The position numbers and the translations under genes were made by a program. From a candidate division WOR-3 bacterium (GTDB lineage Bacteria; Hydrothermota; UBA3073; JACQXS01; JAGMCI01), in NCBI GenBank assembly GCA_023129325.1, contig JAGMCI010000014.1, positions 2,123 to 66,122 on the forward strand: 64,000 nt of DNA, given 5' to 3'. Shown here in pieces: positions 28,167-40,666 of the stretch (its first letter is position 1; every line of letters begins with the position of its first letter). The notes under the pieces were generated by a model that made no database searches, was not told the origin of the DNA, and worked only from the letters and a program-made list of their open reading frames with translations.

Positions 28167-28790
28167 ATACCTAAATGCCTAAAAGAAAGAATATTTGCTG
28201 AAAGACCAAAGACATAAGACTAAAGACTCAAGACTAAAGGAGATAAACCTGAAATTCTGTGGCTTGAATTTAAATTCTTGACTCTTTAAACCGCAGACTT
28301 GTCCCGATACGGAACGGGTCGGGAGGACATAGAGATAAAATCAATAATATTAACCGCAAATGGACGCAGATAGCCACAGATTAAACAAAGAAAAACTTTA
28401 TCACTGAAATACGGAATGACTGGAACACGGAGAATTCTTTAATTCACAAAAAGATTGTAACTCAAGGCTTTAGCCTTGATATCAACCCTAAAGAGTTAAG
28501 TTACAAATCTACCTGTCAGCAGACAGTTTTCTGTGTTCCCTTCTTTTTCCCGTGCTTTCGCGATAAAAAAATCTTTTGACTTGACAAAATACTTTTTAAT
28601 GATTATATTATAAAAAAGAAACTTTTTAGCTACAAAGGACACGGATGACAAAAAAATCTCAAAATTCAAATCGCAAATTTCAAACAAGCATCAATGTTCA
28701 AAATTCTAATGCCTAAAACTGTTTTGATTTTGGGATTTTGGATTTGTTTGGGATTTGGTACTTTGGATTTGGGATTTCCCTGTATCTGTG
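28158..28790. repeat. About 600 bp of non-coding mosaic made of heptamer arrays and hairpins
   Basis: Arrays include CCTAAAT (28158-28186), NAAGACN x5 (28201-28242), AAATNNC (about 28645-28680) and its inverse GGGATTT/TGGATTT (about 28722-28785). Hairpins include TCCCGA..TCGGGA (28302-28324). Confidence 0.7.
28581..28609 (+). promoter_or_regulatory. Sigma-70-like promoter
   Basis: TTGACA, a 17-nt spacer, then TATATT, about 200 nt upstream of the beta-propeller gene. Confidence 0.4.
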
Positions 28791-28808
28791 TCTAAAAAAG
28801 GGGGGATT

Positions 28809-30308
28809 ATGTATAAATTATTTTTTATGTTATGTTTCTTGCTTCCCATTTCTCACTTTTCACTTCTCACTTCTTCTTTCGCCGCCACCTGGGAAAAGAC
28901 TTTTGGAGGGACAGGTCAGGATGAGGGATGGTCTGTTGAGCAAACCACAGATGGTGGATTTATTATAGCTGGAATGACATCCTCATTTGGAGCAGGTGAA
29001 AGCGATGTATATTTGATAAAATTAGACAGTCTTGGTAATGAGGTATGGATGAAGACTTTTGGTGGAGACAGTGCAGATGAGGGACGATGTGTTAAACAAA
29101 CTCAAGATAGCGGATTTATCATAACCGGATATACAAAATCATACGGAGCAGGTGATAAGGATATATGGCTTATAAAAACAAAGAGTTCTGGTGATACCAG
29201 TTGGACAAAAACTTTTGGAAGTAATAAACCAGATGAGGGATGGTCTGTTGAGCAAACGACAGATGGTGGATTTATTGTAGCTGGAGCAACGCATTCATGG
29301 GGAGCAAAAGAGAGTGATGTGGTTCTGATAAAAACAAATAGTCTCGGTAACGATGTTTGGGGGGAAATTTTTGGGGGAGCCGATGATGATGAAGGACGCT
29401 GCGTTAGGCAAACGGCAGATAGTGGATTTATTGTAGTTGGGTATACAAAATCTTATGGGAGTGGGGATAAAAATGTATGGCTCATAAAAACAAAGAGTTC
29501 TGGCGATACCAGTTGGACAAGAATTTTTGGAGGAGGAAACCCGGATGAAGGAATGTCTGTTGAGCAAACGACAGACGGTGGATTTATTGTAGCTGGATAT
29601 ACAGAGTCGTATGGAGCAAGTGACAGGAATATATGGCTTATAAAAACAGATAATTCTGGCAATCCTGATTGGGATGAAACCCTTGGAGGAGAAGCCCCGG
29701 ATGAAGGAATGTCTGTTGAGCAAATCGCAGATGGTGGATTTATTGTAGCTGGAGCAACGCATTCATGGGGAGCAAAAGAGAGTGATGTGGTTCTGATAAA
29801 AACAAATAGTCTCGGTAACGATGTTTGGGGGGAAATTTTTGGGGGAGTTGATGATGATGAAGGACGCTGCGTTAGGCAAACGGCAGACGGTGGATTTATT
29901 ATAGTTGGGTATACAAAATCCTGTGGAGCAGGTTCCTCTGGTGTATATGTTATAAAAACAGATTCCCTTGGCAATGTTGGGGTTGAAGAAGCAATTTCTC
30001 AGTTACCAACTTATTATAGTTTATCCCAGAACTCACCAAATCCATTTAACAAAACTACAGTGATAAGCTTTCAGTGCCCAGTGACCAGTGGAAAAGAAAG
30101 AACCACCTTGAAGATTTATAACTTGAGTGGAAGACTGATTAAGACCTTATTCGATAAGACACTAACCACTAACCACTTGCCACTGACTACTACTGTCTCC
30201 TGGGATGGCAGAAATGAATCTGGCAAATTAGTAGCTAATGGAGTTTATTTTTATAAGCTAAATAGCACAAATTTCGCATCCACGAGAAAACTCATCGTCT
30301 TAAAATAG
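28809..30308 (+). CDS. Secreted seven-repeat (beta-propeller-type) protein with T9SS C-terminal sorting domain
   Basis: Start moved to the ATG at 28809, after AAGGGGGG. Signal peptide ends SSFA. Seven repeats of about 48 aa follow the pattern W.KTFGG...DEG.SV.QT.DGGFI..G.T.S.GAG..D..LIKT. The tail is PNPFNKTT...GVYFYKL...KLIVLK. Confidence 0.8.
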   Translation: MYKLFFMLCFLLPISHFSLLTSSFAATWEKTFGGTGQDEGWSVEQTTDGGFIIAGMTSSFGAGESDVYLIKLDSLGNEVWMKTFGGDSADEGRCVKQTQDSGFIITGYTKSYGAGDKDIWLIKTKSSGDTSWTKTFGSNKPDEGWSVEQTTDGGFIVAGATHSWGAKESDVVLIKTNSLGNDVWGEIFGGADDDEGRCVRQTADSGFIVVGYTKSYGSGDKNVWLIKTKSSGDTSWTRIFGGGNPDEGMSVEQTTDGGFIVAGYTESYGASDRNIWLIKTDNSGNPDWDETLGGEAPDEGMSVEQIADGGFIVAGATHSWGAKESDVVLIKTNSLGNDVWGEIFGGVDDDEGRCVRQTADGGFIIVGYTKSCGAGSSGVYVIKTDSLGNVGVEEAISQLPTYYSLSQNSPNPFNKTTVISFQCPVTSGKERTTLKIYNLSGRLIKTLFDKTLTTNHLPLTTTVSWDGRNESGKLVANGVYFYKLNSTNFASTRKLIVLK

Positions 30309-30534: not shown

Positions 30535-33500
30535 ATGAGAAAATCATTTTTTATCTTCCTTTTCACTGCTTACTGCTTACTACTTACTACTTACTCTTCT
30601 TTCGCCGATACCTGGACCCAAACTGACTGGAGTGGAGAAAGTGGACAATTATTCTATGAAGATACAACAAAGTATTGGCAAGGAAGCGGAATCGACGGAA
30701 TAGTAGATAGAGGGGTTTTGACTCTATATAAAGAAGGTATTTGGGATACAATATTTACAGTTCCAAATCAGACAAAGGTATATACTATTATTAATGGTCC
30801 CGACAGTATTCTTTTTTTGGGTTCGGGAGACAACACCTTAAAGAGCATCTACAGGTCTATAGACAATGGGAAAACATGGGCTCCTTTTATCTCTAATATG
30901 CTAAATATTGTGCCTACTCTTTTGATTGCTTTCTCTAATCTGTATATAGGAGGACGTTATTCAACAAATACTATTGCTCAGATTATCCGATTTCCTGATT
31001 TATCAAGCAGTTACGACTACTACCTTACAGTTCACGATATGTATACTTTCTATTCATTATGTAAATCATCCTCATATCTATTTGGAGCAGGTGGAGCACC
31101 AGAGGGAAGAATATATCGTTCAACAGATGAAGGAGTATCTTGGAATTGGTGTTTTACTTGCTTAGATGATAAAATATTTTCTTTACTTGCAACTAATGAT
31201 GGCACTGTATATGCAGGTACAGGAGATACCTATGGAAGAATATATAAATCTATAAATTATGGTAGTAATTGGACTGAAACAGGTGAGTTGCCAGGTGCAA
31301 AGTCTGTCTATAGTCTTACCCAAGGAGCTGATAGTGCAATATATGCTGGAACTGATACTGCTGGGATAGTGTATAAAACTACGGGTGAAGGAAACACCTG
31401 GATTTCTACTGGAAAACTTCAAGGAGCTACAAAAGTTTATTCTCTAATATGCGGGCCCAACGGTTATCTCTATGCAGGATGCAAATGTGAAGATGATAGT
31501 GCGCGTATATTTGCTTCTATTGATAATGGTGATAATTGGACAAATATAGGAATACTCCCTGGGGCTACTTCTGTTACCTGTCTTTTATTTACAAATAATA
31601 GCTCTTTACTTGCCGGAACAGATTATAATGGCGTCATATTTAAAGCTCCAAAATTTGATACATCTGGATATCTTGTATCTTCTATTTATAATATAGGAAC
31701 AGCTAATGGAAGTGTTGAATATGGGACTATATTATGGGATGCAACTGCTGATACACAAGATATTATTGTTAAAGTGAGAACATTTCAGGATACTGTGAGC
31801 TGGAGCGATACCACTGCCTGGGATAGCGATAGCTGTGTTCCAGTCGCAAATGGACAAGATATATCTGAAATACCTTCTGTAGATGATGGTGACCAATTTG
31901 TTCAGTATAGAGTTGAGCTTTCAACTCAAAGTCCGTTTGTAACTCCAATATTTGATGAAATATCAATAAATTATTCTTTAGATACTATTGCACCTGTGAT
32001 TGTCACGGCTGTCGCTTATGGTAACGAGGAATTAATTCCACCAGATTCAATAATCTCTCAAGACAGAGTAATAATTTCGTTTAGTGAGCAGGTAGATACA
32101 AGTCATGCACATATTAATGTATCCAATATTGACTCTATCTTGAGGTTAAGTAATAATCATTCCTGGCTTGATAATTCTGGAACTTTTCAATCTATTGTAT
32201 GGGAAGACTCAACTACTTTAAAAATTACTCTTGGTGAAGATATATGGTCTGGTATGGTTGCTTCAGGAGATACTATAACTCCTTTGCCTGATAGTATTAA
32301 AGATAAATGGGGAAATCCAGCTACATCTTATTGTGTTATTACTGGTTCTTTTGCTCCAAATATTGATTCTATAATTGTTTCTGATGGCTCTGATTCAATT
32401 GAATATATTGATAACGATGATTATGTTAGTTTTTATTTTTCAAAGCGCACAAATAAACCAAAAATTGATAAAAATAATATAAATTCCGTTCTTCAAATCC
32501 CTGAACATACCTGGCTTGATGGATTGGCTGAACTTAGAGGAGATTCCGCTATTTGGGATACATTTGGATTTACACTTACTTGTTCTTTAAAAATAGATAG
32601 TTTAAGACCTACAATTCAGATTGGTGACACGGTATTTCCTGATGGAATTACAATATGGGATAAATTTTTGAGAGACTCGGTTGCAAATCCAGCTATAATT
32701 GGAGGTACTTTTGGAGATTATGGACCTGTTCCGGAATCTGCCATCGCTTATGAATTTGGTCCCCCTGAATCAGGAATTGGAGATGGTGATATAGTATGGA
32801 TTTTCTTTAATGAACTTATAGATACTAATATAAATTGGGATTCTGTAGACCTTGATACTATATTAACCCCACAAAAAAATGGTATCCAGCACACCTGGCA
32901 TCCTGATAGTTTATCATATGATGTTCAGCCCATAGATATGCAAGACCCACAAGGAATACCATATACTGTGCTTTATATATCTTTTTTCTATCCAGGAGTA
33001 GAAGAGTTTTTTCCCTCAATTACTTCTTATAAACTATTTCAAAACTTTCCAAACCCATTTTCTAAAGGCACACTTATTAAATATCAAATATCAGATATCA
33101 GATATCAGATATCAGAGGTCAGAGGTCCCGATATGAAATCGGGATCCTCATTTTTGTATTCAAATCAAAGACTTGAACAAAAATGGGATAAGAAGACAGA
33201 AGTAAGACCTAAATACCAATTACCAATTACCAATTACCAGATTCTCCCCATTGCTATTGGAGATACGCTTTATCCGGATTCAAGCACAATTCAGGATTTT
33301 AAGGGACATAAATGTATAAAGCCAGTTGTTCTTCAGGGCGCATTCAAAAAACAGGGTAAAGGGCAAAGGGTGAAGGGTAAAGTCAAAACTCTTAACCCCG
33401 TCTGCCAAAGCGAAGCGGCGGGCAGGTCACAACCCACAGCTACTCCGGTTTCCTTAAGAATTTATGACATTGCAGGGCGCTTGGTTCGAACACTAATAAA

Positions 33501-33642
33501 TGAGTCTAAAGTAGCTGGCAGTTACGAAATTTACTGGGACGGAAAAGATTCAGAAGGCAGAAAAGTAAAGAGTGGTATTTACTTTTATAAACTAACTGTA
33601 GGAGAACATACTTTCATAAGAAAAGCAATTTGTATAAGATAA
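30535..33642 (+). CDS. Large secreted BNR/Asp-box repeat protein with an interrupted T9SS C-terminal sorting domain
   Basis: Signal peptide ends SSFA. Asp-box-like motifs are SIDNGKTW, STDEGVSW, SINYGSNW, TGEGNTW and SIDNGDNW. The tail FQNFPNPFSKGTLIKYQI ... PVSLRIYDIAGRLV...GIYFYKL is split by about 360 nt. Confidence 0.8.
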   Translation: MRKSFFIFLFTAYCLLLTTYSSFADTWTQTDWSGESGQLFYEDTTKYWQGSGIDGIVDRGVLTLYKEGIWDTIFTVPNQTKVYTIINGPDSILFLGSGDNTLKSIYRSIDNGKTWAPFISNMLNIVPTLLIAFSNLYIGGRYSTNTIAQIIRFPDLSSSYDYYLTVHDMYTFYSLCKSSSYLFGAGGAPEGRIYRSTDEGVSWNWCFTCLDDKIFSLLATNDGTVYAGTGDTYGRIYKSINYGSNWTETGELPGAKSVYSLTQGADSAIYAGTDTAGIVYKTTGEGNTWISTGKLQGATKVYSLICGPNGYLYAGCKCEDDSARIFASIDNGDNWTNIGILPGATSVTCLLFTNNSSLLAGTDYNGVIFKAPKFDTSGYLVSSIYNIGTANGSVEYGTILWDATADTQDIIVKVRTFQDTVSWSDTTAWDSDSCVPVANGQDISEIPSVDDGDQFVQYRVELSTQSPFVTPIFDEISINYSLDTIAPVIVTAVAYGNEELIPPDSIISQDRVIISFSEQVDTSHAHINVSNIDSILRLSNNHSWLDNSGTFQSIVWEDSTTLKITLGEDIWSGMVASGDTITPLPDSIKDKWGNPATSYCVITGSFAPNIDSIIVSDGSDSIEYIDNDDYVSFYFSKRTNKPKIDKNNINSVLQIPEHTWLDGLAELRGDSAIWDTFGFTLTCSLKIDSLRPTIQIGDTVFPDGITIWDKFLRDSVANPAIIGGTFGDYGPVPESAIAYEFGPPESGIGDGDIVWIFFNELIDTNINWDSVDLDTILTPQKNGIQHTWHPDSLSYDVQPIDMQDPQGIPYTVLYISFFYPGVEEFFPSITSYKLFQNFPNPFSKGTLIKYQISDIRYQISEVRGPDMKSGSSFLYSNQRLEQKWDKKTEVRPKYQLPITNYQILPIAIGDTLYPDSSTIQDFKGHKCIKPVVLQGAFKKQGKGQRVKGKVKTLNPVCQSEAAGRSQPTATPVSLRIYDIAGRLVRTLINESKVAGSYEIYWDGKDSEGRKVKSGIYFYKLTVGEHTFIRKAICIR
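33081..33243. repeat. Composite module in frame: heptamer arrays, hairpin, heptamer array
   Basis: ATATCAA then (ATATCAG)x4 and (AGGTCAG)x2 at 33081-33127. Hairpin TCCCGAT ATGAA ATCGGGA at 33126-33144. (TACCAAT)x3 at 33214-33234. Confidence 0.85.
33352..33426. repeat. Composite module in frame: GGGYRAA heptamers plus GC-rich hairpin
   Basis: GGGTAAA GGGCAAA GGGTGAA GGGTAAA, followed by CCCCGTCTGCCAAAGCGAAGCGGCGGGCAGG. Confidence 0.8.
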
Positions 33643-33648
33643 TTCTAA

Positions 33649-33806
33649 AACCACAGAGAACACAGATTTGAATAAGATAAATAATCCCGCACTTATGTGT
33701 AAGTGCGGGACTGTGTAAATCTATTTTATCTGTGAGAATCTGCGTGCTAATGTTTTTGAATTTTGAAAATGGAATTTGTTTGGGATTTGGTCCGTCAGCT
33801 AACGGA
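33649..33806. repeat. Intergenic mosaic: CACAGAG inverted element, 11-bp-stem hairpin, TTTTGAA-type arrays, TCCGT hairpin
   Basis: AACCACAGAGAACACAGAT (33649-33667). Hairpin TCCCGCACTTA TGTG TAAGTGCGGGA (33685-33710). CTGTGTA..TCTGTGA..TCTGCGT (33711-33750). TCCGTCAGCTAACGGA (33791-33806). Confidence 0.7.
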
Positions 33807-39538: not shown

Positions 39539-40666
39539 ATGAAACAGAAATTGCCAAAAGTTTCTATAATAATTCTTGATTGGAATGGTGGGAAAGATAT
39601 AATAGAGTGTTTAAAATCAATTAAAGGGATAAATTACACCAATTATGAATTAATCGTTGTTGATAATGCTTCTTTTGATAACTCTGTTAATCTCATAAGG
39701 GAGAAATTTCCAAATATAAGAATAATTCAAAACAAAGAGAATCTTGGTTTTGCAGGAGGAATGAATACAGGAATAGTGCAAAGTGTAAAGTGCAAAGTGC
39801 AAAGTGATTATGTGTTACTGCTTAACCAAGATACAATAGTAGGGAAGAATTTTTTAAAGGAGCTTGTAAAAGTAGCTGAATCAGACCCAAAAATTGGGAT
39901 TGTTGGTCCAAAAATATATTACTGGAAGGAGTCAAGGAGTCAAGGGGTCAAGCTATCGAGCTATCGGGCTATCAGTAACCAATTACCAATTACCAATTAC
40001 CAATTACCAAATATTATTTGGTCTTGCGGAACAAAATTTGCAACTGGAAGTATATTTAAAATGGAAGTTCCTTACATAGCACCTGTCCCTATTGGATGTG
40101 GCAAGAAAGATAGAAGTGAGAAGCAAGAAGCAAGAGGTGAGAAAAGGGAACTCCCCAATTCTCAATCCTCAATCCTCAATTCTGATAAGGAAGTAGACGC
40201 GATTACTGGCTGTTGTATGCTTATAAAATTTGAAGTAATTGATAAAATTGGACTCTTGGATGAGAGATTTTTTATAATTCACGAAGATGATGATTATTGT
40301 GTAAGGGCAAGAAAGGCAGGATATAAAGTATGCGTGGCACCTAAATCAATAATCTGGCATAAAGTATCAACCAGTCTACTTCCCACTTCCTACTTCCCAC
40401 TTCCCACTTCCAAATCATATGAGGCAAATCCTATGACAATTTATTACGGATACAGAAATTGGTTAATAGTGTTAAGAAAACATTTTGGGAGCTTTTTTAT
40501 TAGAGTCTTTTTTACCTATATAGTTAAAGTTTTTCCGCTATCCTTTATAAATCTGATCAGGGAGCGTAAACTATCCTTGAGAATTACCCTCTCATATTTA
40601 TACATTATTCTTGATACCTTTCTGTGGAGAATGCCAAAAAGGTTCTTAAAACTTGACAAATCATAA
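39539..40666 (+). CDS. Glycosyltransferase, GT2, with four in-frame repeat insertions
   Basis: VSIIILDWNG...YELIVVDNASFDNS and LLLNQDT (DxD-type) motifs, plus ITGCCMLIKFEVIDKIGLLDERFFIIHEDDDYCVRARKAGYKV. Confidence 0.85.
   Translation: MKQKLPKVSIIILDWNGGKDIIECLKSIKGINYTNYELIVVDNASFDNSVNLIREKFPNIRIIQNKENLGFAGGMNTGIVQSVKCKVQSDYVLLLNQDTIVGKNFLKELVKVAESDPKIGIVGPKIYYWKESRSQGVKLSSYRAISNQLPITNYQLPNIIWSCGTKFATGSIFKMEVPYIAPVPIGCGKKDRSEKQEARGEKRELPNSQSSILNSDKEVDAITGCCMLIKFEVIDKIGLLDERFFIIHEDDDYCVRARKAGYKVCVAPKSIIWHKVSTSLLPTSYFPLPTSKSYEANPMTIYYGYRNWLIVLRKHFGSFFIRVFFTYIVKVFPLSFINLIRERKLSLRITLSYLYIILDTFLWRMPKRFLKLDKS
39775..39809. repeat. Heptamer array in frame
   Basis: AGTGCAA AGTGTAA AGTGCAA AGTGCAA AGTGATT, encoding VQSVKCKVQSD. 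Confidence 0.85.
39928..40012. repeat. Three consecutive arrays in frame (8-mers, 8-mers, 7-mers)
   Basis: (GGAGTCAA)x3 at 39928-39951, (GCTATCGR)x3 at 39952-39975, and (ACCAATT)x4 at 39978-40005 plus ACCAAAT. Together they encode SRSQGVKLSSYRAISNQLPITNYQLP. Confidence 0.9.
40112..40181. repeat. Two heptamer arrays in frame, joined by a short palindrome
   Basis: AGAAGTG AGAAGCA AGAAGCA AGAGGTG AGAAAAG, then GGGAACTCCCC, then CCCAATT CTCAATC CTCAATC CTCAATT. Confidence 0.85.
40377..40411. repeat. Heptamer array in frame, inverse orientation of the AGAAGTG array
   Basis: TACTTCC CACTTCC TACTTCC CACTTCC CACTTCC, which is the reverse complement of GGAAGTR. It encodes LLPTSYFPLPTS. Confidence 0.85.

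Follow-up and report, generated by a model that had tools for sequence, protein, structure and literature searches.

Probable interleaving of an Ig-like domain and a type IX sorting domain by an old segment swap in a WOR-3 cargo protein

A gene of a candidate division WOR-3 bacterium (GenBank assembly GCA_023129325.1, contig JAGMCI010000014.1) encodes a 1035-aa protein that ends in a C-terminal sorting domain (CTD) for a type IX secretion system (T9SS). This domain appears to be broken by about 360 nt of short tandem arrays, hairpins and a peptide that resembles earlier segments of the same protein. The locus thus raises the question of whether repeats have recently placed a fragment of the cargo inside its own secretion signal, as the original prediction held, or whether the arrangement has another origin. 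Positions are given for the 64,000-nt stretch of this contig that was analysed (the window; contig positions 2,123 to 66,122, forward strand) unless another contig is named.

Layout of the protein and its split sorting domain

The protein consists of a signal-peptide-like start, a BNR/Sortilin-like propeller, three Ig-like domains (A, B and C) and a type A CTD (Table 1). Judged by eye, its N-terminus forms a putative Sec signal peptide, MRKSFFIFLFTAYCLLLTTYSSFA, with D as the following residue. Like the T9SS type A CTDs described by TIGR04183 and PF18962, the sorting domain carries the motifs FPNPF...IKYQI and then VSLRIYD..GRLV...GIYFYKL, at the extreme C-terminus and after an Ig-like domain. 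Unlike them, it has its strand 1 separated by 119 aa from strands 2-7.

We compared the alignment of both CTD models with and without the intervening residues. On the native protein, TIGR04183 aligned only from model position 16 to 69 (aa 967-1031) with 26.3 bits, above its cut-off of 23, and PF18962 aligned from 18 to 74 with 21.5 bits, which is under its cut-off of 27. When aa 852-970 were deleted in silico, TIGR04183 aligned continuously from 2 to 69 with 37.3 bits, an increase of 11 bits, and PF18962 aligned from 2 to 74 with 30.1 bits, now over its cut-off. The split of the CTD is confirmed by these data, because TIGR04183 becomes continuous and PF18962 passes its cut-off only once aa 852-970 are removed. 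In place of a single continuous C-terminal domain of ~70-100 aa, TIGR04183 positions 2-15 and 16-69 are found 119 aa apart. This interruption (aa 852-970, about 360 nt) compares with 63-114 aa in the other homologues. The original prediction had described a split of about this length, with arrays and hairpins on both sides of a middle peptide; the split was borne out, and every one of the elements was found at the place given for it. One other partial CTD match in the genome (C4:102580-102762) was examined for a similar split and proved to be a CTD of the usual kind whose start has diverged.

Table 1. Features of the T9SS cargo gene and of the repeat modules within it (positions in the window)
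Feature	Position	Strand	Basis
T9SS cargo gene, 1035 aa	30535..33642	+	ORF list; Pfam and NCBIfam matches
Ig-like domain A, complete, aa 486-606	31990..32352	+	domain HMM positions 1-119
Ig-like domain B, complete, aa 607-726	32353..32712	+	domain HMM positions 1-119; AF2 pLDDT 95
Domain C first part, aa 727-819	32713..32991	+	domain HMM positions 1-58 at aa 730-804
CTD first block, aa 820-852: PGVEE linker and strand 1 FQNFPNPFSKGTLIKYQI	32992..33090	+	TIGR04183 2-15, insert removed
Spacer 1, aa 853-903, hypervariable	33091..33243	+	TRF; 12% identity, 15-51 aa among the ten interleaved homologues
Putative displaced domain C end, aa 904-937, LPIAIGDTLYPDSSTIQDFKGHKCIKPVVLQGAF	33244..33345	+	domain HMM positions 78-119, i-E 6.6e-10
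Spacer 2, aa 938-970, hypervariable	33346..33444	+	TRF; 13% identity, 13-47 aa among the ten interleaved homologues
CTD remainder, aa 971-1035, PVSLRIYDIAGRLV...GIYFYKL...ICIR	33445..33639	+	TIGR04183 16-69, FlgD_ig
ATATCAG/AGGTCAG arrays, spacer 1	33081-33127		TRF
Hairpin TCCCGAT(ATGAA)ATCGGGA	33126-33144		part of the double hairpin
Double hairpin, spacer 1	33115-33190		-26.5 kcal/mol, z -4.5
TACCAAT array, spacer 1	33214-33239		TRF
AGGGTAA-type array, spacer 2	33353-33382		TRF
GC hairpin, spacer 2	33396-33427		dispersed family CCCGCCTGCC-N10-GGCGGGCAGG

One concern with repeat-rich DNA from a metagenome-assembled genome is that the tail of the protein could be an assembly artefact or a decaying pseudogene end. 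This explanation is hardly credible here. The frame is open over 1035 aa, with all spacer and middle-piece elements in frame; an identical 1035-aa protein is present on a separate public ENA assembly scaffold; and the same architecture was recovered from independent genomes.

The middle piece and the order of blocks among relatives

The DNA from about 33241 to 33345 codes for the middle peptide ILPIAIGDTLYPDSSTIQDFKGHKCIKPVVLQGAF. Its likeness to earlier body segments, noted in the original prediction, is significant at the protein level, with Smith-Waterman scores of 62 to aa 693-726 and 49 to aa 574-606, neither of which was reached in 500 shuffles. By repeat search, blastn-short and word-7 blastn, no DNA copy of the piece (33244-33345) was found in the genome, and no direct DNA repeat was found to link it to the upstream body-domain segments, so that the likeness lies at the protein level only.

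An HMM of 119 positions, built from complete copies of the repeated body domain, gave four matches to the 1035-aa protein. The first two are complete (1-119 at aa 486-606 and at aa 607-726), the third covers positions 1-58 (aa 730-804) and the fourth positions 78-119 (aa 867-937). The same pattern was found in an orthologue (P0002). Because the last two matches are complementary, the third copy of the domain is present as two parts, and what lies between these parts is the first block of the CTD together with spacer 1; a complete and contiguous third copy was thus not found with this model. The first part of domain C ends in ...YTVLYISFFY and lacks the last strands, and a lineage-specific stretch (aa ~790-812) precedes its presumed penultimate strand. 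The middle piece retains the last-strand motif P.I.IGDT.YPD..I.D...G......V.L.G.F. It is 56-62% identical to the third-domain ends of six relatives in which the blocks are collinear, vs 32% and 38% identical to the ends of the protein's own domains A and B. In a small tree of such tails, the middle pieces cluster together (support 90/83), and the third-domain ends of the collinear relatives are their neighbours, although this second join is weak (84/40). Judged from these sequences, the middle piece is the C-terminal third that the third Ig-like domain of this protein otherwise lacks.

We also determined the order of the blocks in homologues. An order of domain C start, CTD strand 1, domain C end and CTD rest is common to ten homologues from several WOR-3 families. 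It was found in the orthologues of six genomes of the same taxonomic order (G002, G003, G006, G007, G008 and G009), in those of two further genomes of the same class (G015 and G018), and in the database proteins P0002-P0006, P0080, P0081, P0083 and P0098. The consensus of its N-terminal half is ...YT.LYISF..G[VI]EE, then YPNPF...I.YQ and a variable spacer; that of its C-terminal half is P[VI].VGDTIYP....I.D..G....K.VVLQG.F, a second variable spacer and VSLRIY..G.LV.... The normal, collinear order is present in G022, P0007-P0013, P0091, P0110, P0117, P0174 and a paralogue from the same genome (P0211), an example being ...PTVTVGDTIYPDSITITDVSGRPCIHPVVLTGSF-NPGVEE-...FPNPS...ISYSIP...VTIDLFDITGRK. 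When the collinear order was restored in silico, the two non-collinear HSPs obtained against each of three collinear relatives merged into one full-length HSP; relative to the native order without spacers, the three scores increased (97 to 124 bits, 81 to 117 bits and 97 to 136 bits).

A maximum-likelihood tree was calculated from the N-terminal part alone, with the rearranged region left out. A branch supported at 100/99 separated all ten interleaved proteins from the rest. On the evidence of these sequences the segment swap is old and of single origin.

The degree of conservation differs sharply between the blocks and the spacers. Mean identity among the ten interleaved homologues is 45% for the first part of domain C (81-98 aa), 37% for the CTD strand-1 block (32-36 aa), 50% for the middle piece (34 aa, 37 in one) and 51% for the CTD remainder (65-66 aa), vs the low values found for the two spacers (Table 1). 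By this comparison, both displaced blocks and both domain cores are conserved while the two junction spacers evolve freely. A conserved middle piece of fixed length between hypervariable spacers argues for an old segment swap that has been under selection. The spacers of the orthologues contain period-7 arrays of their own, with units unrelated to those of this genome; the repeats have thus settled at these two floppy junctions later and more than once.

These results bear on the explanation from which the analysis started, namely that a recent rearrangement, mediated by the heptamers and hairpins now seen, copied an upstream fragment into the CTD and possibly crippled secretion. This reading draws on the modules that flank the middle piece on either side, on the resemblance of the piece to aa 693-726 and 574-606, and on the fact that spacer 1 of this genome, at 51 aa, is the longest of all homologues. 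It is nevertheless very improbable. The piece has no DNA similarity to the upstream segments, and a recent copy does not account for a third domain that lacks exactly the displaced part, for a piece that most closely resembles the third-domain ends of relatives, or for the conservation of its fixed length. The claim of a copied upstream segment did not survive the complementary HMM halves. Nor was that of a rearrangement mediated by the present repeats supported by the comparison with orthologues, since diverged orthologues from other genera and families, confined to one group on the tree, have the same segment in the same order, even though their spacers hold heptamer arrays of their own.

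One orthologue (locus L005, the G007 protein P0004) also has a K/R-rich low-complexity insertion of ~48 aa, YNQSKKKPQDFTRLSQERKPRITRIERIMKESNKKSGENLRNLRSKNQS, after the propeller at aa ~405-455. This insertion is absent from the 1035-aa protein of the window and resembles another in-frame element insertion.

Folding, secretion and a possible route to the interleaved form

We consider it probable that two neighbouring beta-sandwich domains of a T9SS cargo protein have become interleaved by an old swap of adjacent blocks of ~34 aa. The order in distant relatives is [domain C part 1][domain C end][PGVEE + CTD strand 1][CTD rest], and the two middle blocks would have exchanged places in the WOR-3 subclade to which this genome belongs. 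As a result, the third Ig-like domain would have its final ~34 aa within the loop between strands 1 and 2 of the CTD. Each of the two domains would in that case be complete, yet they would be mutually discontinuous, the floppy spacers giving the slack needed for the chain to pass between them.

Domain B alone, modelled by AF2 from a 69-sequence alignment, gave a mean pLDDT of 95. The top Foldseek matches of this model were to the S-layer protein SbsC (4uic, 4uj6 and 2ra1; probability 0.99-1.0, E 3e-3 to 1e-2), and the match to the SbsC Ig-like domains is moderate, with a TM of 0.45-0.48; at that level of similarity the model has an SbsC-like beta-sandwich fold. The equivalent of the displaced piece supplies the strand elements 93-96, 102-103 and 114-118 of domain B, a substantial share of the sandwich. 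An AF2 model of aa 607-1035, built from a 7-sequence alignment, had a mean pLDDT of 41.8 and no confident packing. From the conservation of the blocks, the fixed length of the displaced piece and the complementary halves, we infer a fold in which domain C regains its displaced strands and the CTD its strand 1.

A different reading accepts the ancient swap and supposes that the 34-aa piece does not complete domain C, the first part of which would be degenerate or refolded, and that it has taken on a new role, for example as a partner-binding CTD loop or a processing determinant. We regard this as unlikely. It would fit the weak HMM match (i-E 8e-5) with which the first part of domain C covers no more than positions 1-58, the lack of confident packing in the AF2 model, and the tolerance of the same CTD loop for inserts in a neighbouring gene and a paralogue. 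Against it, the piece contains the full last-strand motif at a constant length and is conserved along with the first part of domain C, and its equivalent in the domain B model comprises three strand elements, without which a sandwich would presumably be deficient.

The preferred reading, in which the piece completes domain C, has partial parallels in other systems. Donor-strand complementation of incomplete Ig-like folds is known from chaperone-usher and type V pilins. The CTD of RgpB, for its part, forms a dimer by swapping of its C-terminal strand (PMC4804311). As in these cases, an Ig-like sandwich would here be completed by strands from a non-adjacent part of a chain; unlike donor-strand complementation, the exchange would be intramolecular and genetically fixed. 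Periplasmic binding proteins show an interlaced two-domain topology that arose from duplication and segment or domain swapping, termed 'domain dislocation' (PMC9815098, PMC10601554). The WOR-3 proteins are similar in that the chain crosses between domains more than once (A1-B1-A2-B2) through rearranged adjacent segments. They differ in that the domains are unrelated beta-sandwiches, the blocks are of ~34 aa, the crossings are long, disordered and repeat-derived, and collinear relatives are extant. For protein evolution, they offer a clean case of adjacent beta-sandwich domains exchanging segments, with the collinear and the swapped forms both surviving.

The swap is likely to have proceeded by duplication and loss, in which a block would have been copied into a tolerant loop and the original lost later, all intermediates remaining foldable. 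Neither spacer 2 nor the junction of domain C part 1 and the CTD gave any trace of a duplicated block; in four homologues whose spacer 2 was examined for a degenerate second copy of CTD strand 1, the TIGR04183 match began at model positions 12-15 each time, and no such copy was seen. Because no such remnant was found, this route is a conjecture.

The capacity of the genome for type IX secretion was assessed from its core genes. Homologues of PorU (457.6 bits, cut-off 420), SprA (SprA_N, 56.5 bits) and PorV (55.3 bits) are encoded, as are about 45 other CTD-bearing frames, from which a working T9SS is likely. Conservation of both CTD halves argues that the signal is still in use, and the interleaved protein presumably continues to leave the cell through this T9SS. 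Our search of the literature found nothing that deals with WOR-3 and type IX secretion together.

The CTD of RgpB is a seven-stranded Ig-like sandwich, and PorU cleaves it off at the linker that joins it to the Ig-like domain before it, processing being governed by structural features of both adjacent domains (PMC4804311). In the WOR-3 proteins the insert holds strands of the preceding domain, so that no single linker parts the cargo from the signal. By analogy with RgpB, a PorU cut at the usual junction would, in the interleaved clade, take the final strands of domain C away as well. Cargo domain and signal could in that case be interlocked, such that the CTD is kept (as in PorU and PorZ), is cut non-canonically in a spacer, or undergoes a cleavage that unzips and remodels the terminal domain at the cell surface. 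This interlocking is doubtful; if true, it would provide a natural experiment on what the T9SS recognises in a CTD. The proteins represent a conserved natural T9SS signal in which the first strand lies 63-119 aa from the rest, the insert probably including strands of the neighbouring domain. If they are still exported, as their conservation suggests, T9SS recognition would tolerate a discontinuous CTD.

Repeat modules in the spacers and across the genome

The modules found in the two spacers belong to elements that are dispersed in the genome, the same units recurring at many genic and intergenic loci. The double hairpin of spacer 1 has a 92% copy in an intergenic region of another contig (C22:20397-20472), where it is flanked by other heptamers; the GC hairpin of spacer 2 has about 25-30 genomic copies; and TACCAAT arrays occur at at least six loci, one of them in frame in a GT2 gene (39978-40010). 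The middle piece is not part of a dispersed element, as it has no DNA copy elsewhere and is kept in orthologues as protein. Arrays of period 7 are the commonest period class in the 2.02-Mb genome (G000), with 508 arrays (~252 per Mb) made up of 176 distinct units, and 238 of the 508 (47%) are located 30 nt or more within stop-free frames of at least 150 aa. A change of one unit shifts the reading frame, so period-7 arrays in the genome could act as contingency switches.

Following the swap, this genome-wide class of 7-nt arrays has filled both spacers lineage by lineage. In the present genome the spacers also contain an intergenic-type element with a double hairpin and a dispersed GC hairpin, and these additions bring the insert to ~360 nt, compared with about 270-350 nt in the other homologues.

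Short repeats in frame within bacterial coding regions are known from the Rickettsia palindromic elements (RPE) and from the heptanucleotide STRR arrays and small dispersed repeats of cyanobacteria. By description, the modules analysed here resemble RPE and STRR in that short hairpins and 7-nt arrays lie in frame in protein loops and occur in both genic and intergenic DNA. To our knowledge, again by description, the WOR-3 elements have no sequence relation to RPE or STRR and belong to a different phylum. The parallel accounts for the spacers only and not for the conserved middle piece. Annotation of repeat-rich WOR-3 genomes calls for caution in this regard, as heptamers and hairpins that accumulate in tolerant loops can give an old architecture the look of a recent rearrangement mediated by repeats.

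Similar repeats were seen in other genes. In the GT2-type glycosyltransferase (39700-40500), no fewer than six short tandem arrays lie in frame within loops, four of them with 7-nt units (AGTGCAA, ACCAATT, TCCTCAA and ACTTCCC) and two with 8-nt units (AAGGAGTC and AGCTATCG); its ACCAATT unit also occurs in spacer 1 of the BNR gene. The T9SS cargo gene next to it (28755..30308) carries heptamer-derived QCPVTSGK and TLTTNHLPLTTT in a CTD loop (30072-30192), and the paralogue P0211 carries heptamer-derived NDQLPMTNNLQ in its CTD strand1-strand2 loop (C4:98500-98600). Heptamer-derived peptides seem able to land in this loop and to be tolerated there.

Several WOR-3-type cargo proteins share a leader, LP[IV]TSY.L.QN, just before the NPF motif, as seen at 33007-33030 of the window and in P0013, P0006 and P0091. 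The TACCAAT array translates to LPITNYQLPITNYQ, which is like this CTD leader; either the array derives from the leader or the likeness is a coincidence. In the intergenic DNA 3' of the gene (33650-33800), heptamer-like CACAGAG/ACACAGA and TTTTGAA/TTTGGGA units surround a hairpin, CCCGCACTTATGTGTAAGTGCGGG, which may be the terminator of the BNR gene.
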